A stretch of 64,000 bases of DNA from an uncultured Verrucomicrobiae bacterium. GTDB lineage: Bacteria > Verrucomicrobiota > Verrucomicrobiia > Limisphaerales > JAFGQR01. The stretch spans positions 25,989 through 89,988 of the forward strand of contig CAWBHS010000008.1 of the NCBI GenBank assembly GCA_963788655.1, in the 5' to 3' direction. The translations under genes and the position numbers were made by a program. Under the pieces are notes generated by a model. The model worked only from the letters and a program-made list of their open reading frames with translations, was not told the DNA's origin and made no database searches. Below are positions 4,188 to 29,766 of the stretch, one piece after another (the first letter of the stretch is position 1; each line of letters starts with the position of its first letter).

Positions 4188-5172
4188 ATGGCTGCCGGCA
4201 TCAATGTGCTCATCCACGAAAGCCAGTTCCCCGACCATTGGGAACAGCGAGTTGAAACACTCGCTGGTCAGCCGGCGCATCAATCCCAAGTTTCACTATG
4301 GCAGTCCCCGTCAAACGCAGGCTTGGCTGGCGCTGCATCAGGCCTGTTCGCCGGCCGTCTCGGATCCGGATTGTATTGGCATTTATGACGCGAGCTTTCG
4401 CTTCGTGGCGGAGCAACTGGCTGCCGGGCCGGTCCATGTTGTCAGTCTCGGTTGCGGCGGTGCGCAGAAGGAAGCGCGATTGCTGCGCTTGCTCAGCGAT
4501 GGACGCGGGGATGTTCACGTCACTTTGGCGGATGCCAGTCCAGGATTGGTCGTCACCGCCCATCAACGCATCGCCAAGACTCAACCCCGGAGCATCCGAG
4601 CGGTCATGGTAGATTTGCTGACCGCGGACGATCTCTCCGGATTGCTGTTTGCGCCTGGAGCCGAAACGGCTCGACGAATAGTGACTTGCTTCGGGGTGCT
4701 GCCCAATGCCCAGCCCGCGGTGATATTTCCGCGGCTGGCGAACTTGATGCGTTCCGGCGATTGGTTGTTGCTGAGCGCTAATCTTACCGCGGGCCGGAAT
4801 TATCTCCAGGAAGTCCAGGCCGCACTCCCGCTCTATGACAATGCGCTAACGCGTGACTGGCTGAGCTTGCTGTTGTTCGACTGCGGATTTGAACGCCGCG
4901 ACGGAGAAATTCGTTTCACCATCGAAGCGTGCGATACGCACCCTGAATTGCTGCAAATTGTGGCTTGGTTTGACCTCCGCCGTGAGCGTTGCCTTCGTTT
5001 AGGCGGCGAAGCTATTCAGTTTTCATCCGGGGAATCACTCCGCTTGTTCTATTCCCATCGTTACACCGCCGCGCTGGTGGACCAAATGATTCATCAGGCA
5101 GGTCTGTCCCTTCAACATACATGGATCACCCAGCACAGCGATGAAGGAGTGTTTGTCTGCACGGGGGTGTGA
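4188..5172 (+). CDS. EgtD-like (Methyltransf_33, L-histidine N-alpha-methyltransferase family) SAM-dependent methyltransferase; frameshift near 4235
   Basis: ATG at 4188 (MAAGINVLIHESQFP) joins ORF 4204-5172; INPKFHY, VVSLGCGGAQKE SAM-binding motif, GESLRLFYSHRY. Confidence 0.65.
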
Positions 5173-5637
5173 TGGGCGTGCGACCGCTCGCGAGAGAAAA
5201 AGAAAGGTGTCGGCAAGAGCATCAGGATGCACAGCAAATGCATCTTTCGCCCCCTATAGGCTCAACCAGATGCCCTCGCCGACACAAAAACGGTGATTGG
5301 GAATTGCAGGCAGCCCCGCATTCAGCTTGGCGACACCAAGACACAGCTCGCGCCCCCTTCGAGCTTCAAGGTGAGCTTGGTTACCGGCGCGCTGTTGAAC
5401 TGCAAATTCCACTTTTTCAAAAAACCAAGATTGCCAAATGTCGATTTGGTTGCCGGTTTGTATGCTGCCGGCAAACTGAGTTTTCCGGGCTAAAGAATGA
5501 CAGACTCCGCGTCGCAAAACAAGTCACAGAATATCTTTTTTTGTTTATTATGGGTATTAGACTTGCTGCCGCAGCCAAGGCACGGAAACGGCTTGCCTGC
5601 CTGAATAATGAGGGTGGGCAAATTAAGCCAATCATTT

Positions 5638-6849
5638 CTAAGGCGCTGATTCCGTGTGGCTTTTGCCGTTTATCCGATACAAATGAACTCCGTATGGCGG
5701 AAAATCGTCGGCAAAATGCCCGTTTTTTGCCTCCAAAGAACGGTCTTCACCCAGCACCACAGCCGTTGTTTTGCCGGCCAGGCCGGGGAGCTCAATAATG
5801 CCCTGCGTCGGGCGAGGCCGCATGTTCACCGAGAAGAGATAATTGGTGGCGCCGTGGCGTTTCATCATCCAGGCAATCGGCGTGTTCTGGACACTGGATT
5901 TGACAGTGACGCCGCCGGAGACGCTGGGGCGGTTGAGCGCGGGCGCGAGTTCGTGAATCTGGCGGTTGATGGCAGTGACGGCGGCCAACATCTCCGGGTC
6001 TTCCAGCAACGCGGCTTCTTTGAAGCTTGGCTGGAACTGATGGACGAAATAGATCAATCCCTGCGAACCGTGAATGAGCGCCATCCAGACTTCCGCGCGC
6101 AATTGTTGCGGTGTCGCCTTCGCCCGCGGATTGCCAATGTGGGTACACTCGATGCAATTCCAAACAATCTTCTTTCCGCCGCTCCACTTCACCAGTCGCT
6201 CTACTCCATGGGCGACGAATTCCAACTTGCCGGCCACTTCGCGGTGGTTGTGGACTGCGGGATAAATATCGAAGGATGCGATGTCGCAGCCTTTGATGTA
6301 TTCGGGATAATCCTCCGGATGATTGCGGCGGACCCCGCGGCCGATATAGTTGTCCCACGCCACGCCCTGGCCCAGATTGAGCATTACGGGCCGCGACGGA
6401 TCCGCGGCGCGGAGGTGTTCGTAATCACGAATTATTTTTTCCGGCAGAATGGGCGGACCATACCCTTTGCCTTGGCCGAGCGACTGGGCGTTGTCCGGTT
6501 CGTCTCCGTGCATCCAACCCACAATGATCGGATTGTCCCGGTTGGCCAGGCCCACGCGGTTCTGCGCGCAGATGACCGGCATGTTCGCGGCCTGTAATTC
6601 AGCCAGTTGATTGGTAGTCGGCCCCCGCCAAAGCCCCACGTAGAGGTTGATGCCGGCCGCTTGGTAGCGGGCCGCATTACGCGGACTTTGCAGCCACACC
6701 GCAATGGGGAAGTAATGATCATCTGCCGGTGGACCATGCTTCCATTGGGCATAATTGACGGACGCGGATGATTCAGGAATTTGGGCTCGGATCAGAGGTG
6801 GCGTGGCCAACAACACGCCGGCCAGCGCGAGAAGAAGCTGCGGTTTCAT
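5638..6849 (-). CDS. Secreted putative glycoside hydrolase (TIM-barrel, beta-galactosidase-like, uncharacterised)
   Basis: Signal peptide MKPQLLLALAG; GWMHGDEPD, DIASFDIYP, EVWMALIHGSQGLIYF. Confidence 0.55.
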   Translation of the reverse strand: MKPQLLLALAGVLLATPPLIRAQIPESSASVNYAQWKHGPPADDHYFPIAVWLQSPRNAARYQAAGINLYVGLWRGPTTNQLAELQAANMPVICAQNRVGLANRDNPIIVGWMHGDEPDNAQSLGQGKGYGPPILPEKIIRDYEHLRAADPSRPVMLNLGQGVAWDNYIGRGVRRNHPEDYPEYIKGCDIASFDIYPAVHNHREVAGKLEFVAHGVERLVKWSGGKKIVWNCIECTHIGNPRAKATPQQLRAEVWMALIHGSQGLIYFVHQFQPSFKEAALLEDPEMLAAVTAINRQIHELAPALNRPSVSGGVTVKSSVQNTPIAWMMKRHGATNYLFSVNMRPRPTQGIIELPGLAGKTTAVVLGEDRSLEAKNGHFADDFPPYGVHLYRINGKSHTESAP

Positions 6850-6954
6850 TGGTGCGATAGCATGCTTCAACCGCCCGTGGCGCACAAGCCAAAGCTGGAT
6901 AATGAGGCGTCGTCCTGGATTGACGCATGGGGCGTGCTTCGTCAGAATCAATGC

Positions 6955-7686
6955 ATGAACCGATCGCTAATTGCCTCATGCCTGACGCTGTTGTGCGCTG
7001 CTCACACTGGCTTTGCCGCTTCGCTTGTCCCTGGCCCGGAACTCCAGGCCGCTGCGGAAAAGCAATGGGCGAAAGCCATTGCCGACCTTGAAACCCGCGA
7101 TCAACGCGAGTCCCATCCAGCGGACAGCATTCTGTTCGTGGGCAGTTCGTCCATCCGCCTCTGGAACAGCATTGTGCCCGACATGGCGCCGTATCATCCG
7201 ATCCAGCGCGGCTATGGCGGGGCCAAGTTTTCGGACGTGACGGTGTTCGCGAAACGGCTGATCGCGCCTCATCAATTTCGGGCCATGGTCGTGTTTGTTG
7301 CCAATGATGTGACCGGTCGGCCGGATGATCCCACACCCGAACAAGTGGCTGGTTGGTTCGGACACATTGTCGATGTGGCGCGCGCGGCGCAACCTGACGC
7401 CCCCATTTTTTGTCTGGAGGTTACTCCCACCCAGTCCCGCTGGCAGGCTTGGCCGAAGATTCGCGAAGTCAACCGCGCCCTGGCTCAAGAGTGCCTGGCT
7501 CGGCCCAACGTCGATTTCATTCCCACCGCCCACGCCTATTTGGGATCGGACGGCAAACCGCAGGCGGAATTGTTCCGCAATGACCGTCTGCACCTAAGTC
7601 CGTTGGGTTACCGCATCTGGTCCGCGATCATCAAGTCCCACTTGGATGCGGTGCTGGATCCAGATTTCGCCATTCGAAAACGCTAA
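6955..7686 (+). CDS. GDSL/SGNH-family esterase/lipase
   Basis: Signal peptide; FVGSSSIRLW, RGYGG, ANDV, DRLHL blocks. Confidence 0.85.
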   Translation: MNRSLIASCLTLLCAAHTGFAASLVPGPELQAAAEKQWAKAIADLETRDQRESHPADSILFVGSSSIRLWNSIVPDMAPYHPIQRGYGGAKFSDVTVFAKRLIAPHQFRAMVVFVANDVTGRPDDPTPEQVAGWFGHIVDVARAAQPDAPIFCLEVTPTQSRWQAWPKIREVNRALAQECLARPNVDFIPTAHAYLGSDGKPQAELFRNDRLHLSPLGYRIWSAIIKSHLDAVLDPDFAIRKR

Positions 7687-7974
7687 GCTGCATCTATGCA
7701 GTAAGGAACCGCGAATGAATCCAGCCCAGCGCACCCGTAACCAAGAATAATCAGCCACAAAAGAACGCCAACGCCGTAGAGACATTCATCAGGAGTTGCG
7801 CGCTGTTGCCCACCGAATTGTAATAGCATCGCACCAAGTCCGGTAAGGGCCGCAGATGACTGCCAAACCAGTCCGTGCTCAGCATGGTGTCCACTTCGTT
7901 GGGCGCCCCCAACACGCCGTCCGGATCGCCGGCGGCGCAGGTCGCATCCGGCGTGATGAGCAACGCGAGGTCCA

Positions 7975-8198
7975 CAGGTTGCATCCACTTGCACCGGGCC
8001 ACCATCCAGCCCCATCGCTTCGAGGCGACGGATGATCTCCGTCCCGCGCGTATCATAGCCCACGCGAGAAATGCCTTTGGCCTGGGTGCCCAACGCGTGC
8101 GCGTGGCAAGCAAAGTTGGCGGGAGCCCCGCCCAATTGTGGGCCGGCGGGCAACAAGTCCCAGAGAACTTCGCCCAGGCCAATGACATTAAAACTCAT
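7975..8198 (-). pseudogene. 5' fragment (about 74 codons) of a PfkB-family carbohydrate kinase, probably fructokinase
   Basis: MSFNVIGLGEVLWDLLPAGPQLGGAPANFACHAHALG...SRVGYD; similarity ends abruptly after VQVDAT and no C-terminal DTVGAGD motif follows. Confidence 0.75.
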
Positions 8199-8245
8199 TT
8201 TGTTCGGAGGTTTTTCAGACGTCGATAGTTCCGGAAAGATCGGCA

Positions 8246-8476
8246 GCCGTTGCACGGTTGGTGCCCATGGTTCCCCTCACCCTGACCCTCTTCCCAAGGA
8301 GAGAGAACAGCGATGGCACGGGCCTTGATCTTTGATGAGGATGCGACGATCGTCTGCTTTGGGATACGCGCCTCAGCAACCAAGCATGGGAGTGCGCTCG
8401 TTGTCTCCGGCCGGCGCCAAACGGGCTCCCTCTCCCCAAGGGAGAGGGCTGGGGTGAAGGGGAAGGTGACGCCCGC
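8246..8476. repeat. About 230-bp REP-doublet (REPIN-like) element, copy 1
   Basis: Inverted arms CCCCTCACCCTGACCCTCTTCCC...GGGAGAGGGCTGGGGTGAAGGGG; arms, spacer and flanks all align with 15677-15910. Confidence 0.8.
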
Positions 8477-8532
8477 AGTGCCTGAACGCAGAGATTTGCC
8501 CCCCCGACCAACCAGCTTTGTTCATAAGCCGT

Positions 8533-9954
8533 TCATCGATTCAAGCCTTCTGTTTTGCCAGAGGTCGAGGACAAGGAACTCCCCCGGATTGCATTGTCTT
8601 CGGAGCTGGGCGCCTGCGATTGCGGTTCCGCCGCGATCCCCAGTTTGTGTTGCATGGCCTCCAAAGAAATCCCTTTCGTTTCCGGCACCATGATTTTCAC
8701 CCACACCAGTTGCAGCACCATCATGCCGCTGAAGAACAGGAAGACGAATCCCGGGGAGAAGGCCGTTACCAGCTTGGGAAACAGCGTGGTGAGCAACGCG
8801 GCAAAAAACCAGTGCGTAAAACTGCCCAGGGCCTGGCCCTCGGCGCGATGGCGGTTGGGAAAGATCTCGGAGATAAACACCCAGATGACCGCTCCCTGAC
8901 CCACCGCGTGCGCGGCGATGAAGGCAAAGATGCATCCCGGCACGATGGCGAAATGCTGCGTGAAGAACGCCCAGGCAGTCAGCCCCAGCGAAGTGATGTA
9001 ACCAAAAGATCCGACGTACAGCAGCGTGCGCCGGCCCAACCGGTCGATGAGCCACAAACCAACGAAGGTGAAGATCAAATTGGTGACGCCGATGCCGATG
9101 GATTGCAGCAGCGCCGCTTTCTGGCCCAGACCGGTCATCTCGAAAATGCGCGGCGCGAAATACAGGACCGCGTTGATCCCGGAAAGTTGATTGAAAAAGG
9201 CAATCAGAACTGCCAGCGCAATCGGGAGCCGCAACCTCCAGGTCCAGAAGCGAGCGGAGGATTTCTGCGCGGACGATGCTTCCGCAATCTCATCGGCTTT
9301 GGCCGCCAGTTCCGCCGGCGACGCTTCGGGGCGGATGACCTGCAGGATTTGGAGGGCGGTTTCCCGGTCGCCTCGGCGGCCAATCAACCAGCGCGGGCTC
9401 TCCGGAATGCTGAAGCAAAGCGCTGTGTAAACGAGGGCTGGAATGGCTTCCACGCCGAGCATCCAACGCCAGGCTTGTTCGCCCAACCGAGCCAGCAGGG
9501 CATTGGAGACAAAGGCGATCAGGATGCCGAAGACAATGTTGAACTGGAACATGCCCGCCAGCCGCCCCCGGCGCTCCGCCGGGGCAATCTCCGAAATGTA
9601 GAGGGGCGCGGCAACGGTGGAGATACCCACCCCGAGTCCACCGATGAACCGAGCAATAATGAACGAATAAACGTCCGTGGCCAAACCCGACCAGACGGCG
9701 GACACAAAGTACAGGATGCCGATCCAAAGCAGCGTAGCCCGGCGCCCAAAGCGGTCGGTGGGCCAGCCGCCCAACAACGCGCCCAGGACCGTGCCGTAGA
9801 GCGCCGAGGCCATGGCGATGCCGTGCAGCCCCGCGCTCAATCCCCAGAGCGTTTGGATTTTTTGCTCGGCGCCGGAAATGACGACGGTATCGAAACCAAA
9901 GAGAAATCCGGCGAGCGCCGACGTGATGGCCCAAAAGAAAATGCGAGCTTTCAT
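8533..9954 (-). CDS. Sugar porter family MFS transporter
   Basis: GFLFGFDTVVISG, DRFGRR, YISEIAP..RG, PESPRWL, QLSGINAVLYF, PETKG. Confidence 0.95.
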   Translation of the reverse strand: MKARIFFWAITSALAGFLFGFDTVVISGAEQKIQTLWGLSAGLHGIAMASALYGTVLGALLGGWPTDRFGRRATLLWIGILYFVSAVWSGLATDVYSFIIARFIGGLGVGISTVAAPLYISEIAPAERRGRLAGMFQFNIVFGILIAFVSNALLARLGEQAWRWMLGVEAIPALVYTALCFSIPESPRWLIGRRGDRETALQILQVIRPEASPAELAAKADEIAEASSAQKSSARFWTWRLRLPIALAVLIAFFNQLSGINAVLYFAPRIFEMTGLGQKAALLQSIGIGVTNLIFTFVGLWLIDRLGRRTLLYVGSFGYITSLGLTAWAFFTQHFAIVPGCIFAFIAAHAVGQGAVIWVFISEIFPNRHRAEGQALGSFTHWFFAALLTTLFPKLVTAFSPGFVFLFFSGMMVLQLVWVKIMVPETKGISLEAMQHKLGIAAEPQSQAPSSEDNAIRGSSLSSTSGKTEGLNR

Positions 9955-9985
9955 GGCGATTGTTTTTCGAGATGAGGCGATTGGC

Positions 9986-12130
9986 TTACTGCGATTCCCA
10001 GGCGGACTTCAGTTCATAGACTTGCAGCGCGTTGATCTTGGCGGTGCCACCTTTGGTATAGATTTCCAGCGAACGGTTGTCCTGCGGGACGATCATGCCC
10101 ATCGGCATGTACAGGCGGCCGTCGTTGCCGAAAATGTCAATGGAGGTGCGGTCCACCATCAGCCGGAGACGAATTTTGCCGTCCACCGGCTTGAGAGCGG
10201 CCTTTTTACCCCGGCAAGCAAGTTCCTGTTTCTTCGCGTCGTAATTGACCGTGACGCCGCGGAGGTTGAAGCCCAGTTCAGCCGCGTCGCCGAGAGTCAA
10301 TTCCGCGGTGAGATCGAGGAGTTCCCCCTTCACGTGGGCGAGAGGATTATCGCCAGGGCTGAGCGGCTGCGGGGGGATCGTGTGAGATTTCGCGCGCAGC
10401 GAGTTGTGTTCCTTCACCGGAGTTGCAAACAGCCGCGATCCCTGGTCGGTGGAGCGCAGGGTGAGTTCCACCGGCAATCCCATCATCTGGTTGAATGGCA
10501 TGCCCGGCATGTTCATCTGTCCCCACGGAATAAGAATGCGCCGGCCGTCCGCCGGGGGAATGTCCGTGAAGGTCTGCGAGGCATACCAGCAATTGCCGTA
10601 TTGCATGGGGTGCGGTCCGGATTCCGGCGTGAAGGTCTGGCCGTCGAACTTGCCGACGAGATAGCGGCCGTTGCCACCGTAGAATACCCAGCGAGTGTTC
10701 TGCTGGTGGCCGTCGAGAGCGATCTCGAAGAACTCGGGACACTCGCTGGTGCCGGGGATTTGCACGTCGCTCATCTTCTCCCACTGTTTCAGGTCCGGCG
10801 AACTGAAGAGGGCGTAGTCGTTCTTGTCGAGATACAAGGCCATGATCCATTTCTTACCCGGCGCATACCAGATCACCTTGGGATCGCGATTGCTGCCAAT
10901 GATGTGGGGCAAAACCGGATTGTGCTCGTACTTGGTCCAGGTGCGGCCACGGTCGTTGCTGTAGGCGATGCCCTGGGTGAAGGGATTGCCCGCCGCCGTG
11001 AAGATGCAGACGAGGACCTTCTCCGCGCCGGTCTGGAAGCCGGCAGTGTTGTTCCAGTCCACCACCGCGGACCCGGAAAACATGGTGCCGTGCTGGTCGG
11101 GATAAAGCGCCACCGGCAGTTCCCGCCAATGAACCAGGTCCGGGCTGACCGCGTGGCCCCAGTGCATGTTGCCCCAGGCCCAGCCGTAGGGATTGTGTTG
11201 GTAGAACAAGTGGTATTCGCCTTGGTAAAAGACCAGGCCGTTGGGGTCATTGTTCCATCCGCGGCGGGAGGAAAAGTGGAACTGCGGACGCAGCTTCTCA
11301 TGATAGAGGGTGTCCGGGTTCTTGATCGCATTGGACTGGTCGATGGATTTCAAGCCGGTGGAATCTTCGGGCAGCTTGTCCACTTTGAGCGTGGCTTGCT
11401 TGCCTGCAAACGGCGCGATGTCCATGAACGCCCACCAATCCGGCTCGCCATCGGCCAGTTCGATGTCGAAGTCGCGCGGCGGCTGGCCATCGACGACCAA
11501 CCCGCACCTGGCGTTTCGGCGCTCCGTTCTTCACGGGAAGTTCAGATAGCGTTTCGTCAACGTTATCTCGCGCGTCACGTTGGTCAGCATGCCGGGCGGC
11601 TTGCGGTCGGTCTGGACGATCTGGTCCACGTTGATGTGGCCCCAGCCGCCCTTGGCTTGGTCCACGATCTGGATCACGGCCATTTTGCCGGCGAACTCCC
11701 CTACGTCCCACGAGGCCGGCGCGAGCGCTTCGCTGCCGCCCGGTCGGTCGTTCGGACCGGTGGCGTTGCGGACGGCCTGGCCCTCGACGAGCAGGTTCAT
11801 GCAGGTCTTCTCGGCGTTCATGCCACCACCGATGAGAAAGCTGATAAACCGCCGCTCAATTTTAAACTCCGGCGACGTGAGCGTGCCGGTGGTGACGTCG
11901 CCTTTGAAGAAGGAGTTGACAAGGCCCTGGCCCTTGAAGCCGCTCACCGGCATCTGATTGGGCAACGTGCCATGCGCCGGGCCGGGGCCGAATGCTTCGC
12001 CGGTGGTTTTCCACTGGCCGTAGTCCGGGCCTTCAAAGTCGGCGATCAGGAGGTCGTCTGCGGCGTCCAAGCCGGGCACGGTCAGGGTGGCGAGGCAGAG
12101 AAGGATCATTGGCGACAGTCTTTTCATCAT
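9986..12130 (-). CDS. GH32 beta-fructofuranosidase/levanase with an N-terminal accessory domain; frameshift near 11500-11535
   Basis: WNNDPNG, FSGS, RDP and ECP catalytic motifs; signal peptide MMKRLSPMILL in the upstream frame. Confidence 0.9.
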
Positions 12131-21275: not shown

Positions 21276-22808
21276 TCAATCTTCGACCAAGGTAATATCC
21301 TCCTCCGGCTTCGGATAATTCTTTTTCGCGATATACGACTTGGTGTCGTCCACCATCTCCTGGGTGATCTGAAAATTATATTTCCGATAATCGTTCACCG
21401 TGAATTCTCCCACTTTGAAGAATCCCCACTGGTCAAAAAAGTCGGTCAGATCCAGCTTGGCCACATCGCAACAGATCTTAACGAACTCAAACTGGTTTCG
21501 AATGGAATCATCCCCGCGACCGGCGTCCGGGCGGCTGCGCATTTCCTCCATCACGTCGGCATAAAAGTCCGGCTTGCCGTGTCGTGCAAAATAAAGGTGG
21601 AGTTGCCAGAAGGGAACCAGGCGGTCGAAGACGTCCTTCCATTCCAGGTAAGAGATCTTCGGAGTTGCTTCGATGATGTTTTTGCGCGCTGACGCATAAT
21701 TCTTCTGCGCGGCGAGGCGGCTCGGATTGCCCATCCCGGTGACGGTAAACATCGAGAAAATGTTGCAGCTCACCTCGGTCATGCCGCCCCAGGTCATTTT
21801 CGGGCGCATTTGCAGCACGTGACCGGTTTCGTGACTGAAGCCCCAGCAGGGATCGCCTTTGATGACGACTTCCGGATCAGCGACCATGCGCATGGTGCCC
21901 TGGTTGCCGAGGTAGGCCACCCCGTCGCCGTCGCGGAACATGTAGTAATTGAAATTGACGCGCGCCAGAATGCGGTTTTTGGGCACCTTGTGGTATTTCA
22001 CCAATCCCATCAGCGTGTAATGGCTGTGAAGCAGTTTGTCGTAATTGCCGATCAATTCCGTCCCCTTGCCACGGGTGTAAACGTTGAACCACTCCACCGG
22101 GTAGGCGACCTGGATATGCTTGCCGCGTGCGTCCATGATGGGACTCACCGCCTGGTCCAGCAGTCGGTCCCAATCGGCGTTCGTCTGCTTGGTGGCATCG
22201 AAGTAGCCATTCACTTTGCCCGTGGGAAAGTGAACGACCACCTGCGGCGCCGTCTCGGCACGGTCGTCGAAATAGCTCAGGTACACATTGCCGCCCTTTT
22301 CCACTTGAATCACATTCACCCCCTCGGTCAGCGCGATCCGCTGTTTCTTCAGTCCCCATCCATTCGGATCTTTTGAGGGATTGACGCCTGCGGGCGGCTG
22401 GCGCATCCAGTCGGGAATCAGTAGCGAAAGTTCCTTACCCCCGGTAGGTCCGACCAACACCACTAGTTCGCCCGGCTCCAGGCAGATGCCGGTGATGTTC
22501 TCGTAACGGCTGAAGCCATCGCCCAGCTTCAACGTGTTCCCCAATTCGCGAGGCGAAGGATAGGCTGCATAACTGGCCGCTCGGTAGGTTCGGTCATACG
22601 TGCCGTTCAGCATCTCGGCCGCCACCCTTTTGAGCAACGCGCTTTGAAAGTTATCCAAATCTTTCAACTGCACGTTCGGCTTCAACTGCCGGCAACTGGT
22701 GTCGGTAAAGAACGTCATGTCGGCTTTGAGCGCAGCGAGGTTGATTGCGGCGCTACCGGAAATTAATGGCCATGACAATAAGGCGACAGCCAGGACGAAT
22801 TTGTTCAT
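21276..22808 (-). CDS. M60-like zinc metallopeptidase, secreted
   Basis: Signal peptide; WGFSHETGH...GMTEVSCNIFS gluzincin motif; TGI..PGE N-domain; FWQL..YF. Confidence 0.85.
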   Translation of the reverse strand: MNKFVLAVALLSWPLISGSAAINLAALKADMTFFTDTSCRQLKPNVQLKDLDNFQSALLKRVAAEMLNGTYDRTYRAASYAAYPSPRELGNTLKLGDGFSRYENITGICLEPGELVVLVGPTGGKELSLLIPDWMRQPPAGVNPSKDPNGWGLKKQRIALTEGVNVIQVEKGGNVYLSYFDDRAETAPQVVVHFPTGKVNGYFDATKQTNADWDRLLDQAVSPIMDARGKHIQVAYPVEWFNVYTRGKGTELIGNYDKLLHSHYTLMGLVKYHKVPKNRILARVNFNYYMFRDGDGVAYLGNQGTMRMVADPEVVIKGDPCWGFSHETGHVLQMRPKMTWGGMTEVSCNIFSMFTVTGMGNPSRLAAQKNYASARKNIIEATPKISYLEWKDVFDRLVPFWQLHLYFARHGKPDFYADVMEEMRSRPDAGRGDDSIRNQFEFVKICCDVAKLDLTDFFDQWGFFKVGEFTVNDYRKYNFQITQEMVDDTKSYIAKKNYPKPEEDITLVED

Positions 22809-22970: not shown

Positions 22971-24296
22971 ATGAACAATGACCATGCAACCAGACTCACA
23001 CGACGTCAGTTTCTCACCCGGGGGGCGATGGCGGCAAGTGCCGTAGCGATGCCCTGTTTGATCCCGGCCTCGGCATTGGGCCGAAACGGTACGGTGGCGC
23101 CGAGCGAACGGATTGTGATGGGCGGCATTGGACTCGGTGGTCGTGGTTCCTACGATTTGGGCTGGATCTTGACCCAGAAGGATGTGCAGTGGGTCGCTGC
23201 CTGTGACGTCGTGAAAGGCCGGCGCGATGCGGCCAAGAACGTCGTCGATACGAAATACGGCAACCAAGATTGTGCCGTGTATGGCGACATGCGCCAGTTC
23301 CTGGACGAGCGGACGGACGTGGACGCCGTGTTGATTGCCACGGGGGACCGCTGGCATGCGCTGGCTTCGATTTGGGCGATGCGGGCGGGCAAGGATGTTT
23401 ATTGCGAGAAACCGGCCTGTCTGACGATGGCGCAGGGGCAAATGGTTGTCGAGACCGCACGCCGGTATGGGCGGATTTATCAAACGGGCGCCCAGCGCCT
23501 CAGCGAGCCGCATCATGTGTTTGCCATTGAAATGGCCCGCTCCGGCCGGTTGGGCCCCATTGATACGGTTTACGCCGACTGTCGTTGGCGCGACGGGATG
23601 CGCCACGACTGGTTGCCCGCCGAACCGGAACCTCCCAAGGATCAACTGGACTGGGATCTGTTCGTCGGCCCTTCTCCCTGGCGGCCCTACAACCACGGTT
23701 ACCTGAACTCCGGGTGGTATCACTTTTATGATTTCGCCACCGACGTGGCGATGTGGGGTGCGCACACGGTTACCCAAGCCCTGGCTGGACTCGACATGGA
23801 CAACGTATCCTCCATCGAATTCGAGTATGCCGGGCCGGGGGCAACGATGGTGACCCGTTTGTCCAACGGGGTGAAGTTGGTTCTGTTCCGGGTCAGCGGC
23901 TCGGTTTGGGAGCCGTGCGAGTATTGGCATGGCGCGTGTGGCGAGCGGTTCGATGGTCCCAAAGGCTGGACCGCCGCCGCCGACGGTTATGCGCGCACCG
24001 ACGTCTCCTCGCCTGCGCTGTTGCGCGATTATCAGAACGTGCTGGCGGAATATACGACGCGCACCCAGCGCCCATTGAACCACATGCGGGATTTCTTTGA
24101 CTGCATCCGGTCGCGTCGGCTCACCGTGGCGAGTCCCGAAGTGATGTATCGGTCCATGAAAATTTGTTTGGCGGCCGATATATGCGAGCAATTGCAGCGC
24201 AACCTGAAGTTCGACCTGCGCGCGGCTGAATTTGTCGGAGATCCCGAAGCCAACCGGTTGCGTTTTCGCGCGATGCGCGCCCCCTACACAATCTGA
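22971..24296 (+). CDS. Tat-exported Gfo/Idh/MocA-family oxidoreductase
   Basis: TRRQFL Tat motif; GIGLGGRG, DAVLIATGDRWHA, YCEKP. Confidence 0.9.
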   Translation: MNNDHATRLTRRQFLTRGAMAASAVAMPCLIPASALGRNGTVAPSERIVMGGIGLGGRGSYDLGWILTQKDVQWVAACDVVKGRRDAAKNVVDTKYGNQDCAVYGDMRQFLDERTDVDAVLIATGDRWHALASIWAMRAGKDVYCEKPACLTMAQGQMVVETARRYGRIYQTGAQRLSEPHHVFAIEMARSGRLGPIDTVYADCRWRDGMRHDWLPAEPEPPKDQLDWDLFVGPSPWRPYNHGYLNSGWYHFYDFATDVAMWGAHTVTQALAGLDMDNVSSIEFEYAGPGATMVTRLSNGVKLVLFRVSGSVWEPCEYWHGACGERFDGPKGWTAAADGYARTDVSSPALLRDYQNVLAEYTTRTQRPLNHMRDFFDCIRSRRLTVASPEVMYRSMKICLAADICEQLQRNLKFDLRAAEFVGDPEANRLRFRAMRAPYTI

Positions 24297-24464: not shown

Positions 24465-24934
24465 TCACTTTTCCAGTTCCTGTTCGACCGCGGAGAATTC
24501 TTCGAGAGCTTCTTCAAGATCTTCGACGATTTCGGCGGCGAGGATGGCGGGTTTGGGGAGGTTTTCCGTGTCGGCCAGCGTGTCGTCTTTGAGCCAGAAG
24601 ATGTCGAGGTTGGCTTTGTCGCGGGCCATCAGGTCGGCGTAGGTGAAACGATTGAAGCGTTCGGATTCCTCGCGTTTCTTCGTGCGATTCTTGGTCTGGT
24701 AGAACTGGACGAACTCTTTCAAGTCTTCGTCGGCGATGGGGTTTTGGCGCAGTGTGAAGTTGCGATTCGTGCGCAGGTCATAGACCCAAAGCTCTTTGGT
24801 CCAAGGCGTCTTGGAGGCGGGCTTCTTGTCGAAGAAGAGCACGTTGGCTTTCACGCCGGGCGAATACCAGATGCCGGTGGGCAGACGCAGCAGAGTGTGG
24901 ACGTTGCAGCGATCCAGCAAGGCGCGGCGATTGT
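24465..24934 (-). pseudogene. hsdM: Type I R-M methyltransferase HsdM, 3' part
   Basis: RRALLDRCNVHTLLRLPTGIWYSPGVKANVLFF...WVYDLRTN...RDKANLDIFWLKD; joins the part at 28342-29253 once the transposon is removed. Confidence 0.9.
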
Positions 24935-24941
24935 TGTACAG

Positions 24942-25021
24942 CAGCGAATAGATCCGTGGAGGAAAGAGCGCAGTAAATTGTGGAGCAACGGGCCAAATGA
25001 GCGCATTGCACCGTGGGGCAA
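24942..25021 (+). repeat. Three subterminal 23-bp direct repeats, putative transposase-binding sites
   Basis: cagcgaatagatccgtggaggaa (24942), gagcgcagtaaattgtggagcaa (24966), gagcgcattgcaccgtggggcaa (24999). Confidence 0.7.
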
Positions 25022-25064
25022 GAGGCGCGCTCGAAGCGTGTGAACGTATCGAGTAGTATGGTGG

Positions 25065-25095
25065 ACCGTCTCCCGGATTCGGACCGGGAGACGGT
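25065..25095. terminator. Perfect 12-bp stem-loop downstream of the transposon operon
   Basis: accgtctcccgg-attcgga-ccgggagacggt; no clear U-tract on the minus strand. Confidence 0.45.
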
Positions 25096-25138
25096 AAGAG
25101 GTTGGCCCGTGGCGACGAGAACGGGATCGGCCGTGGGC

Positions 25139-25528
25139 TTACCTTCCGTGCTCGGCGCGAAACTGGGTCAGGATCTGCAGCGCGCGTTGACGCGCCGCCG
25201 CCTCTTCTTGAGGATCGGCCGGCGGGACCGAACGGGGCTCAGGATTGGAGCCGGAGGGCTTGGGGGCGTAGAGCGCAACGCGGCTGATGTTGAGATCGTC
25301 TTCGAAACGGTCGGGCTGGAGGAGATTGTAGAGCTTGAGGGCTCCGACGTTCCTGCGTCCCTCGCGGATTTCCCGCTGCAGATAGCGGACGACTCGTTGG
25401 AGATCGGCTTCGGTGAACCCCGCACGGAAGAAGTCATACCAAAGCCGTTCCCGATCAAAGCGCAGGCTGACGCGCTGGCCCGTCAGACGGCCATAGAGCG
25501 CGTGAACTTGTTGGATGCGCGCGATCAT
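25139..25528 (-). CDS. Orphan 129-aa protein, last gene of the transposon operon
   Basis: ATG overlaps the ATPase stop (ATGA at 25525-25528); MIARIQQVHALYGRLTGQRVSLRFDRERLWYDFF... Confidence 0.7.
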   Translation of the reverse strand: MIARIQQVHALYGRLTGQRVSLRFDRERLWYDFFRAGFTEADLQRVVRYLQREIREGRRNVGALKLYNLLQPDRFEDDLNISRVALYAPKPSGSNPEPRSVPPADPQEEAAARQRALQILTQFRAEHGR

Positions 25529-26358
25529 GAGCTGTGTCGCGTTAACCCCGCCAACCCGGGCACCTGTTCCATCGCCTGCTGCATCGTGGGGGCGCTGATT
25601 TCCCGGAGGTCGGCCCGAGCGGCTTCGATCCACGCCGCCCGAGCCAAGAGGCAGACGCTGCGCGGCACGCCCGCGGTGGCCCGGACCAGCAAATCCACCG
25701 CCGCCGCTTCAAAAACCTGCGAGCGATTAATGCCGACGGCTTCCAGCCCGGTTCGCAGATAGGTTTGGATCTCCTCGAGCGTCCATGGACTGAGCAGGTG
25801 ATGAGCGCTCAAGCGGGAACAGAGCGCCCGGTGATTGCGCAGTTGGAGCTGTCCCAGCAGGTACTCGTCCCCGAGGAGGACCAGCGCGAAGGTCGGTTGG
25901 CTGGGCAGGTTGAGCCCGAGCAACAACCGCAACTCTTCGAGCGTGCCGTGGGTCGCGTTCTGCGCGTCGTCCATGACAATGACCAGGGTCTGGCGCTCAT
26001 GTTCGGACAGGTAGCTGGAGAGTTCATCCAGATTGCGCTCGCGGCGGATGCTGGCCCGCTTGCCCAGGCTGCGAGCCAGACTGGCTAAGAGCCCACTGCT
26101 GCTCAAGGTGGCCTGGGTCAGGTTGACCGGAGTATAGAGTCGGTTCTCCAGTTGGCGCACCCAGCGGCCGACCAAGGTGGACTTGCCCGTCCCATTGCCT
26201 CCGCTTAAAAGCATCGCGCCGCGCAAGGCGGCCGTCTGCTCGAGGAGACTCCAGGCGCGTTGCTGGGAGGGGATGGCAATCCAGTGCGGGTCCGATAACG
26301 GCCCGAAGGGCACGGCGGTGGCACCCCAGGTCCGCGCATAGCGATCCAATTCATTCAT
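25525..26358 (-). CDS. ExeA-like/AAA_22 transposition helper ATPase
   Basis: Walker A GGNGTGKST, Walker B VIVMDDAQ, G.PR near the C-terminus; ATGA overlap with the transposase stop. Confidence 0.9.
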   Translation of the reverse strand: MNELDRYARTWGATAVPFGPLSDPHWIAIPSQQRAWSLLEQTAALRGAMLLSGGNGTGKSTLVGRWVRQLENRLYTPVNLTQATLSSSGLLASLARSLGKRASIRRERNLDELSSYLSEHERQTLVIVMDDAQNATHGTLEELRLLLGLNLPSQPTFALVLLGDEYLLGQLQLRNHRALCSRLSAHHLLSPWTLEEIQTYLRTGLEAVGINRSQVFEAAAVDLLVRATAGVPRSVCLLARAAWIEAARADLREISAPTMQQAMEQVPGLAGLTRHSS

Positions 26359-27617
26359 CGCTTGCCCTCCCCGCCATCGATTTGGCTGTTGAGGTGGCGG
26401 TCGACTTTGCGGGCGGCTCCAAAGTCCTGTCCTTTGTAGCGGACCAGGATCGGGTTCTTGACCCAAGGATCGAGCTCCAAGTGCACTTTGAGCCCGCGCA
26501 GGGCCAGGTTCACCTCGTAGAGATCGTTGTCGATGCGGACGGTCCCGTCTTTGCGCACCACGCGCTCGATGCGGGTGTAGAACAGCCGGTCCAGGTCCAG
26601 CTGCGGATCCAACGGCCGCAGCAGTGGCAGCGCCCGGGCGAAGCGCTCCTGGGGACTTTCGCCGATGCTCGAGTGAGGACGGGGATGGTAGATCTCCTGG
26701 AGCCACTGGGCGAGCTTGCCGTTAAGTTCCGCCAAGGATCCGACGGCTTGGCCGGGCAAACGCAAGCCGGCTTCGAAATCCTCCTGCACGGTGCGGAACA
26801 ACCGCTCCACTTTCCCGCGACTCCAAGGCCGGCCCACTTTGGAGTGAATGAGCCGGATGCCCAGATTGGCGCACACGATGCGCAGATGGTGATTGACGAA
26901 GGGACCGCCGTTGTCCGCATAAAGTTTTCTCGGCAATCCCCGGCGACGAAGCGCCGCTTTGAGGCAGCGCAAGAGCGCCGGCGTGTCGGCGGCCAACCCG
27001 TAGGCCGCATGCGGAATCAGGCGCGAGTGATCATCGACGATGAGGCAGAGGTGGGTGGGCACCGTCTTGGGGTGCAGGGCCAAAAAGGGGCCCGGGGAGA
27101 AGTCGACGATCCAAAGGTCATTGACGCCGGGTGCTTCAAAGGCCTTGGTGGGACCCGGGATGTTCTGGCGCAGCAGATAGCGGCGGCCCTGCGCGTCGAG
27201 GTCATTCTGCTCCAGCCAGCGATAGACGGCCGAGAGCGCCGGCAGCGTGGGGTCGGATTGTTTCCATTGCCGGTAAAGCAGCTTGACCGGCACTCCCGGA
27301 AAGCAACGCACCTGATCGATGACCCACTGCTGTTGAGTGGCCGATAATCGCCGGGGTTTGCCCCGGTCGGATCGTGGTTTGGGCTTGAGTCCTTCGAAGC
27401 CGGCTTTCTTGAACGCGTAATACCAGTCTTCGAGCGTGCGCCGAGCGACAAATTGAGGGGGTGCCTCACTGTCCCCGGGCAAGGGATGAGTAGAGCTCAC
27501 CTGTTCCAGCGCCGCGGAAAGAGGCCAGTGGTGCTGAAGGAGCTCGAGGACGGCTTGAACCAGGCTCATACGCCGCAAGGCGACGGCCTCCTGAACGGAT
27601 GCAGTTGTGTTTTTCAT
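26355..27617 (-). CDS. DDE-type transposase (rve core, N-terminal HTH, Mu-like C-terminal beta domain)
   Basis: WIVDF, LYADNG, GKVERLFRT triad; RRTLEDW...GLKPKPRSDRG; RVVRKDGTVRIDNDLYEV. Confidence 0.92.
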   Translation of the reverse strand: MKNTTASVQEAVALRRMSLVQAVLELLQHHWPLSAALEQVSSTHPLPGDSEAPPQFVARRTLEDWYYAFKKAGFEGLKPKPRSDRGKPRRLSATQQQWVIDQVRCFPGVPVKLLYRQWKQSDPTLPALSAVYRWLEQNDLDAQGRRYLLRQNIPGPTKAFEAPGVNDLWIVDFSPGPFLALHPKTVPTHLCLIVDDHSRLIPHAAYGLAADTPALLRCLKAALRRRGLPRKLYADNGGPFVNHHLRIVCANLGIRLIHSKVGRPWSRGKVERLFRTVQEDFEAGLRLPGQAVGSLAELNGKLAQWLQEIYHPRPHSSIGESPQERFARALPLLRPLDPQLDLDRLFYTRIERVVRKDGTVRIDNDLYEVNLALRGLKVHLELDPWVKNPILVRYKGQDFGAARKVDRHLNSQIDGGEGKR

Positions 27618-27704
27618 GCGGCGCGGAGCCTTTCACGCCGCCGGCTTGGATTTCAAAAACAGGGTTTCGTGGGATTAATAACCTGTTGCGCTCCAACCGA
27701 TAAT

Positions 27705-28239
27705 TCAGGATGACGGTCGCAGACAGCGGTAGTTGCCCAAGAGCGAAATGTGGTGGTGTTCGGAAAGAAAGCAGAGCATCTTTGGCACCGAGTCAAATGA
27801 CTGTCGCAAGCTGGCCCACAACGAGAGGCCGTCGGAAACCGTGCTACTAACCAGTTGTCCGAAGACTTCTTTGAGGGTGGCCGCGCGTGCCGTCAACGCA
27901 CTCCACGCTCGTCGGAGGCAACCCGCCTCTAAGGCGCGGGGCGGTGGGTCCAGGCCTTGGGTCTGGATCCTCGCCCGTTGGTCAAAATCCCCTTGCAACC
28001 GCTCGGCACGGATCGAGCGATACGGTAATCGATGCGGCGGCAGGACCGAGAAAGTCCGGCCGCAAGCAGGATGCAGATAGCGCTGGATCCTCTCCTTGAG
28101 CGTGCCCTCCGGATCGGCATTCCGCCAATAGCATCCATGGCGGTGAACCATCCCCGGGCCACCGCAGGGACAGGACGGCCGCATTCCCTTGAGTTGATCT
28201 TCGCGGAATTGGATCGGGGAGCTTTTCCGAAATCACCAC
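27705..28239 (-). CDS. Zn-finger protein resembling DUF6431; 5' end probably frameshifted near 28215
   Basis: CPCGG..HRHGCYWR...IQRYLHPACGRTFSVLP..LPYR. Confidence 0.65.
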
Positions 28240-28341
28240 GGCGAATCAAGCTGCTTTCTTTCGGGCTCCACGATGCGAGCGCCCCAGCTTTCCTCATCAA
28301 CGTTCCGCACCCACGCTCACACCATTTTTCGCAGCGCTACA

Positions 28342-29253
28342 GGATTTTCTCGCCTGCGCCGGCCTCGAACAGAACATTGTCCGGCACGACCACGGCGGCT
28401 GTGCCGGTTTCCTTGAGCATGGAATAGACGTTCTGCACGAAGTTGAGCTGCTTGTTGCTCGTCGTCGGCGCAATGAAGTCCTGGCGCTCGTAATAGATCT
28501 TCTCCGTCTCCCGCTTCCCAGCGTCGTTCACGACCGTGATGCTGCTCTTTTTTCCAAAAGGCGGATTCGTGAGCACCATGTCCACTGGCTCGGGCCTCTT
28601 TGCGAGGGTGTCCATTGTCTGCACGATGGTCTTGTCGCTGCCGCCCATGCCGTGCAGGTAAAGGTTCATCGCACACAGACGTGTGACGCCCGGCACGATG
28701 TCCATGCCACGGATGGCTTCCTCGTTGATGAAGCGCTGGGCTTTGCGATCCAAGTCGCGGGAGTTCGTCGTCACAGATATTCGTATGCGGCGAGCAGGAA
28801 GCCACCCGTGCCGCAGGCGGGATCGGCGATGCGCATGGTCGGTTCGGGGCGCATGACTTGCACGATGGCGCGGATGATGGGGCGCGGCGTGAAGTATTGG
28901 CCCGCGCCGCCGCGCACGTCCTCGGCGTTACGCGCGAGCAGGCCCTCGTAAATCTCGCCCTTCACGTCCATGTCCAGCCCGGCCCAGTTCTCCGACTCCA
29001 TCAAGGAGATGAGTCGTTCCAGCTTGGCGGGGTCGGTGATCTTGTTCTGCGCCTTGGCGAAGATGATGCCGAGCAGACCGGGCAGCTTACCCAGCTCGCG
29101 CAGCGTCTTGGAATACTGCACCTCCAACGGGTCGCCCGACTCCTGCTTGAGCGCGGCCCAGTTGTATTTCTTGGGAATGACATTCTCCAGGCCGAGCAAC
29201 TCGCGCTCGTGGGCCATTTTGAGGAAGAGCAGAAACGTGATCTGCTCGGTGTA
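28342..29253 (-). pseudogene. hsdM: HsdM 5'/central part; N-terminus missing, frameshift near 28772
   Basis: YTEQITFLLFLKM, GAGQYFTPR, DPACGTGGFL (motif I), NPPF (motif IV), VVPDNVLFE. Confidence 0.9.
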
Positions 29254-29254
29254 A

Positions 29255-29766
29255 CCGCACTAGCAAAGGCAGCGACAGCGCCGACGGCAAAGGAGCTATT
29301 TACCGAGGGCGAGTTTAAGCCCGACGCCGTTTACGAATTCTATGATGCGATAGCAGACTCTCCCGAAGCCATAAAGCGCCTACGCGGAGAGCGAGTTCCG
29401 TTGCGAGCAAGAAAGCGACCTCGTAGTCGTGAGATTAAGCAGGGTCACCCATTCCGCTTGCACGAGCTTTGGGTGAAGAGATTCAAGAATCTCGAGGACT
29501 ACCTAGTGCGATTTGAGCCGGAACATTCGCTGGATGCTCTTTTGGGCTGGAATGGCACTGGTAAATCGAACCTGTTCGAGGTGCTGATCGTCATTTTCCG
29601 GGATCTCTACAAATGGCAGTTTAAGGATTTTGAGCCACACTCAGCTCGGATTAAACCTGCGCCATGTTGGAACCGGACAAGGGGAATTCCAATGGCGTTT
29701 GGACAAACTGTCACAAGCAAAACCCCGCAGTCCCATTCATGCAAATGGCTAAACAAGAGTGTTTAA
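29255..29766 (+). pseudogene. Fragment: HsdS-like C-terminal tail in frame with the N-terminus of an ABC/AAA_21-type ATPase
   Basis: FRLHELWVKRFKNLE...LLGWNGTGKSNLFEVL Walker A; no start codon of its own and no Walker B. Confidence 0.6.

Follow-up and report, generated by a model that had tools for sequence, protein, structure and literature searches.

A four-gene transposon of Verrucomicrobiota, probably allied to Tn6049, Tn552 and Mu

The DNA analysed here, a 64,000-nt stretch of contig CAWBHS010000008.1 from an uncultured Verrucomicrobiae bacterium (hereafter the window, whose positions serve as coordinates unless a related locus is named), carries a 3407-bp element inside the type I restriction gene hsdM. 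The element occupies 24935..28341 (- strand), has TGTA...TACA ends that match those of related copies, and contains four intact co-oriented genes, which encode a zinc-ribbon protein, a DDE transposase, an AAA_22 ATPase and a 129-aa protein referred to below as the fourth protein. We consider it likely that the element is one intact copy of a transposon present in many copies in Verrucomicrobiota, and that it belongs, together with Tn6049, Tn552 and Mu, to a broad group of elements that combine a DDE transposase with an AAA_22 ATPase. The four-gene plan is already known from Tn6049 and from Table S5 of PMC3414803, though the roles of the two small proteins are not. New here are the 7-bp target duplication, the asymmetric ends with several sites each, the finding that all four genes are under purifying selection, and the identification of the fourth protein.

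Extent, ends and genes of the element

The outer limits of the element could be fixed to the base. A preliminary description of the window had placed a 3407-bp insertion between TGT at 24935 and ACA at 28341, and at least 10 related copies share homologous end positions with it, starting with TGTAGCGCTGCGAA and finishing with TTCGCTGCTGTACA in register with the window element. GC content was 62.5% in the element versus 59.2% in the window, and no second copy of the element was found within the 64 kb. The gene arrangement given in the same description was confirmed as well. All four genes lie on the minus strand, in the order zinc-ribbon protein (159 aa, 27705..28184), transposase (420 aa, 26355..27617), ATPase (277 aa, 25525..26358) and fourth protein (129 aa, 25139..25528). 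A gap of 87 bp separates the first gene from the transposase gene, and the last three genes are joined by ATGA overlaps at 26355-26358 and 25525-25528, where the start of the ATPase gene overlaps the stop of the transposase gene and the start of the fourth gene overlaps the stop of the ATPase gene.

The transposase consists of an N-terminal helix-turn-helix (HTH) part, an RNase-H core and a C-terminal beta-barrel-like region. Pfam matches were rve (43.6 bits), HTH_32 and rve_3, and residues D172, D235 and E271, invariant among 18 aligned homologs, are the predicted DDE triad. Its best NCBIfam match was IS481 (167.6 bits, E 4e-49), below the cut-off of 224, and the IS21 model likewise scored 65 bits, below its cut-off of 160. 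The PHROG family phrog_310 (transposase) matched with 178 bits, and PDB matches were IstA of IS21 (E 1.3e-7, the best) and TnsB (E 3e-6, reaching residue 392). The Mu-transpos_C domain (PF09299) is carried by 4 of the 120 transposase homologs listed in the database search described below. In the ATPase, Walker A (GGNGTGKS) and Walker B (VIVMDDAQ) motifs were read from the alignment. This protein matched Pfam AAA_22 with 56.7 bits, the ExeA-like model TIGR03015 with 105.6 bits (below the cut-off of 324.5) and phrog_296 'DNA transposition protein' with 85.5 bits, and MuB (8xvb, E 0.002) was the only solved structure that it matched. Families phrog_310 and phrog_296 hold the A and B proteins of transposable phages. 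No Pfam match to TniQ, TnsA, TnsC or IstB was obtained at E up to 0.1 among the element proteins, and no resolvase or recombinase gene was found within the element. The placement of the insertion among precisely bounded DDE-plus-ATPase transposons of the Mu, Tn552, Tn7 and IS21 kind, proposed earlier, is upheld.

The two ends are built unequally. At the left end, the terminal inverted repeat TGTAGCGCTGCGAAAAATGGTGTGAGC (28315..28341, - strand), conserved across copies, constitutes a putative terminal transposase site (L1) and is imperfectly inverted relative to the right tip TGTACAGCAGCGAATAGATCCGTGGAG. One similar subterminal site, L2 (GGCGCTCGCATCGTGGAG, 28266..28283, - strand), was recognised in the alignment of left tips; it resembles the right-end repeats and has an inverted match at 25024-25040. 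The right end holds three subterminal repeats of the form AGCG-N9-GTGGRG (24943-24961, 24967-24985 and 25000-25018, + strand), which read inwards from the tip and are conserved in the right-tip alignment. This motif has 4 matches in the window, 3 of them at the right end, versus 0.41 expected, and 0 of 100 shuffles reached 4. All these end sites, L2 included, are candidate transposase-binding sites. Mu, Tn7, Tn552 and IS21 typically have multiple, unequal sites at each end.

Related copies, selection and insertion sites

A database search with the transposase at E <= 0.001 returned at least 1623 homologs. Among the 120 listed, which were 78-100% identical, 114 were on contigs of at most 6.5 kb, 5 on contigs longer than 10 kb and 1 had no size given; the predominance of short contigs is what a repeat that interrupts assembly would produce. 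When one genome per species was scanned, 21 related loci (given L numbers) were obtained, of which 18 were in records labelled as metagenome-assembled genomes (MAGs) of Verrucomicrobiota, 1 in an Anaerolineaceae (on a 1-kb contig), 1 in a Gammaproteobacteria and 1 was unlabelled. At least six loci were found in one MAG. Two of these, L008 and L009, lie about 10 kb apart on the same contig in opposite orientation, a pair that could act as a composite or as an inversion substrate.

The four genes occur together inside the ends, in the same order, in 13 of 13 close-clade loci that span the element, with broken genes in three of them (L012, L013 and L015), and the lengths of the copies range from 3381 to 3407 bp. 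Median pairwise ratios of nonsynonymous to synonymous substitution rates (dN/dS, 35-36 pairs per gene) were 0.19 for the zinc-ribbon protein, 0.10 for the transposase, 0.08 for the ATPase and 0.14 for the fourth gene. Such low values indicate that all four proteins are maintained by selection. The two accessory genes, conserved and under purifying selection (0.19 and 0.14), are therefore not variable passengers, a doubt that had been attached to them from the outset.

Eleven copies, the window copy included, could be read at both ends. A perfect 7-bp target duplication was present in 6 of them, a 6-bp one in 1 and none in 4. The duplicated 7-mers all differ (ctattgg, gcattga, gcactcc, cgaatat, gccttgc and accctgg). 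No common target gene emerged among 18 flanking reading frames from 9 related copies: two frames, both from L003, were istB of IS21, one gave a weak DUF642 match and the rest had no match. Target choice, as far as these flanks tell, looks loose. The L003 copy sits in that IS21 istB (4778-5275 and 8682-8996 of the locus), with IstB_IS21 positions 4-135 and 137-232 on either side, and is flanked by the 7-bp duplication ctattgg.

Two further loci differ from the rest in their integrity. In L012, from a Limisphaerales MAG, a 3.5-kb insert (6705-10213 of the locus) splits the transposase gene near residue 230-235 and encodes three consecutive tyrosine recombinases, that is, a RIT element. RIT elements inside the transposase gene of Tn6049-related transposons have been reported in Acidithiobacillus ferrooxidans (PMC3414803), so a second phylum shows this kind of target as well. 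L020 (5186-8351 of the locus) is a distant, decayed relative whose transposase is 44% identical to that of the window. Frameshifts have disrupted its zinc-ribbon, transposase and ATPase genes, but the fourth gene still has an open frame, with 67% identity over the first 85 residues. This pattern suggests, on comparison of the sequences, either stronger constraint on the fourth gene or its exchange.

At the window copy the interrupted hsdM, which runs in the same direction as the element, is a decaying pseudogene in three pieces. Its C-terminal fragment (24465..24927, - strand) covers Pfam N6_Mtase positions 202-288 and was also placed by alignment to the EcoKI and StySJI M proteins; the N-terminal fragments (28349..29217, - strand) cover positions 3-68 and 73-197 in two frames. 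The preliminary description had stated that removal of the insertion restores GEKI-RRALLDRC, which did not hold: taking out exactly 24935-28341 yields GEKI-HN-RRALLDRC. In the solved StySJI M protein (2okc), to which both hsdM pieces were aligned, GEKI (residue 321) directly adjoins RR (322), and the GEKI-type and RR-type residues are likewise adjacent in the EcoKI M alignment. Because these residues are adjacent in M proteins of solved structure, the six surplus bases are read as the remnant of one copy of a 7-bp target duplication. The upstream copy, aaaatcc in gene orientation (28342..28348, - strand), restores GEKI-RR when joined to gccgcgcc; the degraded downstream copy, acaatcg (24928..24934, - strand), is identical to it at 5 of 7 bases and has, by the argument from reading frame, lost one base. 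A second lesion of hsdM is a frameshift near 28771-28774. The insertion would have inactivated hsdM, which would later have decayed further.

No hsdS or hsdR was found beside hsdM. The next genes encode a Gfo/Idh/MocA oxidoreductase (22971-24296) and then an M60-like peptidase (21276-22808). Just upstream of hsdM, a plus-strand frame at 28858-29766 stops after the N-terminal fragment of a P-loop protein, which matches SMC_N weakly (25 bits); this too is probably what remains of a gene in a decayed defence region.

Within the element, a hairpin with a perfect 12-bp stem is predicted directly 3' of the fourth gene (25065..25095, - strand), with no T-run after it. Among the copies folded, it is shared by the window, L006, L008 and L001, with one compensatory change in L006, and is not predicted in L003, L004, L007 and L010.

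Relation to Tn6049 and other DDE-plus-ATPase transposons

The same layout is found in Tn6049, whose original description is said to be that of Van Houdt et al. in 2009. PMC2864759 gives Tn6049 a length of 3.5 kb and 12 copies in Cupriavidus metallidurans CH34, all with an ATPase gene called 'gspA'. PMC4739549 gives its 12-bp inverted repeats as TGTGCaTaAGCA and reports a 4-bp direct repeat for Tn6049 in pHS87a. A plan tabulated in 2012 for 'Tn6049 related transposons' of beta-, gamma- and delta-proteobacteria reads 'Mob prot - TnpA - ATPase - UF' (Table S5, PMC3414803), and in that table TnpA and ATPase form one protein cluster each, with several clusters at the first and last positions.

We located Tn6049 in L032 by its published inverted repeats, at 1575 and 5091 of that locus (3517 bp). 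It encodes a 181-aa Cys-rich protein, a 479-aa DDE transposase, a 277-aa AAA_22 ATPase and a 71-aa open reading frame, and no clear target repeat was seen at this copy. The likeness to the window element is extensive: about 3.5 kb versus 3.4 kb, imperfect TGT...ACA repeats, a multicopy state, the same order of four co-oriented genes, an ATPase of 277 aa in both and, in one relative of either element, a transposase gene interrupted by a RIT element. By blastp, the kinship is distant, the transposases being 28.7% identical over 352 aa (E 2e-30) and the ATPases 25% identical over 215 aa (E 1e-7). The two elements differ in that their first and fourth proteins have no similarity detectable by blastp or hhalign, that a 4-bp repeat is reported for one Tn6049 copy (PMC4739549) versus 7 bp here, and that the host is in another phylum.

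Two earlier judgements have to be divided in the light of Tn6049. The statement that the layout fits none of the known ones is right insofar as the IS481 and IS21 cut-offs were missed and TnsA, TniQ and a resolvase are lacking, but Tn6049 shares the layout. The class is poorly described, as had been supposed; it nevertheless already bears a name, Tn6049, and has a gene table in print. No description of the family under names other than Tn6049 was found in the literature. In a tree of 15 transposases, the Verrucomicrobiota clade grouped with a Pandoraea/Acidithiobacillus clade, a Geobacillus clade and Tn6049 (support 80/89).

Further relatives were detected on plasmids, where 905 records matched the transposase, all at less than 60% identity. 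The best matches, 33-35% identical, were from Geobacillus, Thermobacillus, Pandoraea, Acidithiobacillus, Streptomyces and Rhodococcus, and in all six genera an AAA_22-type ATPase lies directly downstream and a small protein upstream of the transposase. A tblastn search with the ATPase against plasmids at E 1e-5 gave no match, and the distant relatives of this protein were located by position instead. The upstream protein matched DUF6431 in 6 of the 7 plasmid relatives tested and in L017, and in the relatives HTH_23 or HTH_28 often follows directly after the ribbon. A core of DUF6431 protein, DDE transposase and AAA ATPase thus recurs in Bacillota, Actinomycetota and Pseudomonadota, the trio being partly without annotation in Thermobacillus and Acidithiobacillus. 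The cassettes on Geobacillus pGS18 and on Streptomyces, Rhodococcus, Pandoraea and Acidithiobacillus plasmids have the three genes in the same order as the window element; they differ by the absence of the fourth gene and by the 33-35% identity of their transposases. Fifteen copies of an unnamed 'DUF6431 - DDE - AAA ATPase' cassette in Clostridium sp. JS66 are mentioned in a preprint of 2026 (bioRxiv 10.64898/2026.08.16.744336).

The zinc-ribbon protein of the window is DUF6431-like. It has the residues C5-x-C7 and H38-x2-C41, the family consensus being CxC...CxxC, and DUF6431 clusters make up 29 of the 30 neighbours that the Atlas gives for it. The search for homologs returned 498, and among the 120 listed, 2 (P0334 and P0337) carry the Pfam domain PF20020 (DUF6431). 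The AlphaFold2 (AF2) model of this protein, with a predicted local distance difference test score (pLDDT) of 58.1, was too poor to use, and with Foldseek it found no PDB entry at E <= 0.001. Our profiles A3 and A2, run against the PDB, returned only C2H2 zinc-finger and designed tetratricopeptide-repeat matches, which were judged spurious.

Better-studied systems resemble the element in part. Tn552 has a DDE transposase with a Mu-type C-terminal region and an overlapping AAA_22 ATPase of about 271 aa, and transposases of its type from Staphylococcus, Listeria and Sphingobium are 27-31% identical to that of the window. Three of three Tn552-type loci examined carry a serine recombinase (resolvase) and no DUF6431 protein, whereas the window element shows the reverse and, in addition, two other small genes. 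Tn552 generates a target duplication of 6-7 bp. Likeness to Mu lies in the best PHROG families, in the MuB match of the ATPase and in the several sites per end; in contrast to Mu, the window element is not a phage, its transposase has 420 aa versus a 696-position profile, and its duplication is 7 bp, that of Mu being 5 bp. IS21 is likewise a two-protein system of a DDE transposase and an AAA+ ATPase, with multiple terminal repeats and with IstA as the best structure match, but the window ATPase is of the AAA_22 and not the IstB_IS21 type, and the transposase score was 65 versus 160 bits.

The fourth protein, rival explanations and proposed mechanism

The fourth protein comprises a helical domain (about residues 1-90), a proline-rich linker and a C-terminal helix (residues 106-127). 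It has at least 3010 close homologs, all unnamed, and its profile reached 759 cluster representatives at E <= 0.001. Some of these representatives are 250-320 aa long and bear the fourth-protein domain at the C-terminus. When 16 long or odd representatives were compared with Pfam, 5 had N-terminal HTH_36/DnaD_N, DUF1376 or Phage_rep_org_N domains, 3 had unrelated enzymes, 1 gave a weak DUF3143 match and 7 gave nothing. In a PHROG scan of fused forms, 9 of 11 matched 'replication initiation protein', 'primosomal protein' or 'replication initiation O-like' families N-terminally and 2 nothing, and the C-terminal parts of the fused forms share the motif of the window's fourth protein. The fourth protein is accordingly described here as a putative free-standing copy of the C-terminal module that, in several kinds of phage replication initiator, stands behind the origin-binding domain. 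Lambda O and DnaD-type proteins offer the basis for an analogy, by which the binding target of the module would be DNA or a partner protein, for instance a helicase loader.

The fourth protein is confined to the Verrucomicrobiota lineage, being present in L020 and absent from the plasmid relatives, in which tblastn found no homolog of its gene at E<1. The small genes in fourth position in Tn6049 and in the Pandoraea element showed no relation to it. Complex prediction of the ATPase with the fourth protein gave a score of 0.00 versus a mark of 0.32, which speaks neither for nor against binding. In P0398, P0405 and P0437 the fourth-protein domain is fused to unrelated enzymes, which together are HsdR_N, a methyltransferase and a HAD hydrolase; in these cases the gene call probably extends over an insertion junction. 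In P0398, HsdR_N, another type I restriction gene, stands in front of the fragment of the fourth gene.

Three other explanations were considered for the element. It is very improbable that it is an ordinary IS481-family insertion sequence with three passenger genes irrelevant to transposition, although IS481 is the best NCBIfam match of the transposase, the annotation pipeline PGAP names some relatives, the Tn6049 transposase included, 'IS481 family transposase', and the TGT...ACA ends fit. IS481 elements measure about 1 kb and have a single transposase gene, in contrast to 3407 bp and four genes here; the IS481 score fell below the 224-bit cut-off, and the C-terminal region of the transposase beyond the IS481 model matches TnsB and IstA. 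Moreover, the ATPase and the zinc-ribbon protein accompany transposases of this clade across four phyla, three of the genes are coupled by ATGA overlaps, and purifying selection acts on all four. A Tn7- or Tn5053-like element, in which the zinc ribbon would be a selector of the TniQ/TnsD type that steers insertion to a site or to defence genes such as hsdM, is also improbable. The N-terminal zinc ribbon beside a TnsB/TnsC-like pair, the HTH directly after the ribbon in relatives, the window copy in hsdM and the HsdR_N of P0398 before a fragment of the fourth gene would all suit such a selector. However, TniQ, TnsA, TnsD and TnsC were all without a Pfam match at E up to 0.1, the target duplication measures 7 bp and not the 5 bp of Tn7-like elements, and neither a common target in the 18 flanking frames from 9 copies nor a common 7-mer was found.

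The notion of a remnant of a Mu-like transposable prophage, reduced to its A and B genes and its ends, is hardly credible. The 3.4-kb element is complete, and many independent copies, 3381-3407 bp long, have both ends and duplications; the element contains no structural or lysis genes, its four genes are intact and under selection, and no full-length prophage bounded by TGTAGCGCTGCGAA ends was present among the 21 loci. These features outweigh the best PHROG matches, which are transposase and 'DNA transposition protein' families of transposable phages, and the phage replication-initiator relatives of the fourth gene.

Several observations nevertheless count against our reading of the element as a transposon of the DDE-plus-AAA_22 group with a fourth protein of phage-initiator origin. 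The window transposase matched Mu-transpos_C with 19.0 bits (residues 345-395), below the cut-off of 21.7, and the zinc-ribbon protein scored 13.5 bits for DUF6431 (PF20020), below the Pfam cut-off of 26.6. No match to DUF6431 or to profile A3 was obtained for the upstream protein of Tn6049. Support for the deep branches of the transposase tree is weak (74/69 and 80/89), with Tn6049 on a long branch. The window copy has no intact target duplication, with 5 of 7 bases kept and one lost, and 3 further two-ended copies are without one, two of them on short contigs and one with a nested element. The stand-alone fourth protein matched no Pfam, NCBIfam or PHROG family; a PHROG replication family was matched by 1 of 44 aligned members, itself a fused form, and Phg_2220_C is an Atlas lead only (score 0.93, 4 of 30 hits, 124 of 256 shared features). 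This module has no established function in the phage initiators themselves. The AF2 models of the fourth and the zinc-ribbon proteins are both too poor to use, with pLDDT of about 58; that of the fourth protein is all-helical at 57.9, a low confidence. No experimental work on any member, Tn6049 included, was found in the literature consulted.

For a transposon of the DDE-plus-AAA_22 group, the protein families point to the following course of transposition. The transposase would bind through its N-terminal HTH domains to two sites at the left end and three at the right, bring the ends together and transfer their 3' CA termini to target DNA at positions staggered by 7 bp. The ATPase, whose translation is coupled to that of the transposase, would act like MuB, Tn552 p271 or TniB, coating or marking target DNA with ATP and handing it to the transposase. 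The zinc-ribbon protein, which accompanies the transposase-ATPase pair across four phyla, may be a core DNA-binding subunit or a regulator. The fourth protein may be a clade-specific adaptor, acquired from the C-terminal module of a phage replication initiator, that most likely would connect host replication proteins with the strand-transfer complex or bind the AAA+ ATPase that the element itself encodes.

This last step is a tentative proposal and rather doubtful as it stands: the fourth protein would be a partner-recruiting module that brings a host helicase or helicase loader to the strand-transfer intermediate, or that docks on the ATPase of the element, the latter by analogy with phage initiators, which dock on AAA+ helicase loaders. 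Mu leaves the step from transposition to replication to host factors. If the proposal is true, a small transposon with neither resolvase nor second-strand nuclease would itself supply a bridge from transposition to replication.

Regulated target choice is best understood in transposons of the DDE-plus-ATPase kind, among them Mu, Tn7 and IS21, and such transposons also form the framework of RNA-guided transposition tools. The present comparison ties Tn6049, the anonymous DUF6431 cassettes of four phyla and a very abundant Verrucomicrobiota element into one compact system, whose four proteins and 3.4 kb could be reconstituted. DUF6431 thereby gains a context, as the constant partner of a transposase-ATPase pair. 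The apparent loan from phage replication initiators was unexpected and, if true, would bear on how strand-transfer products are handed over to replication.

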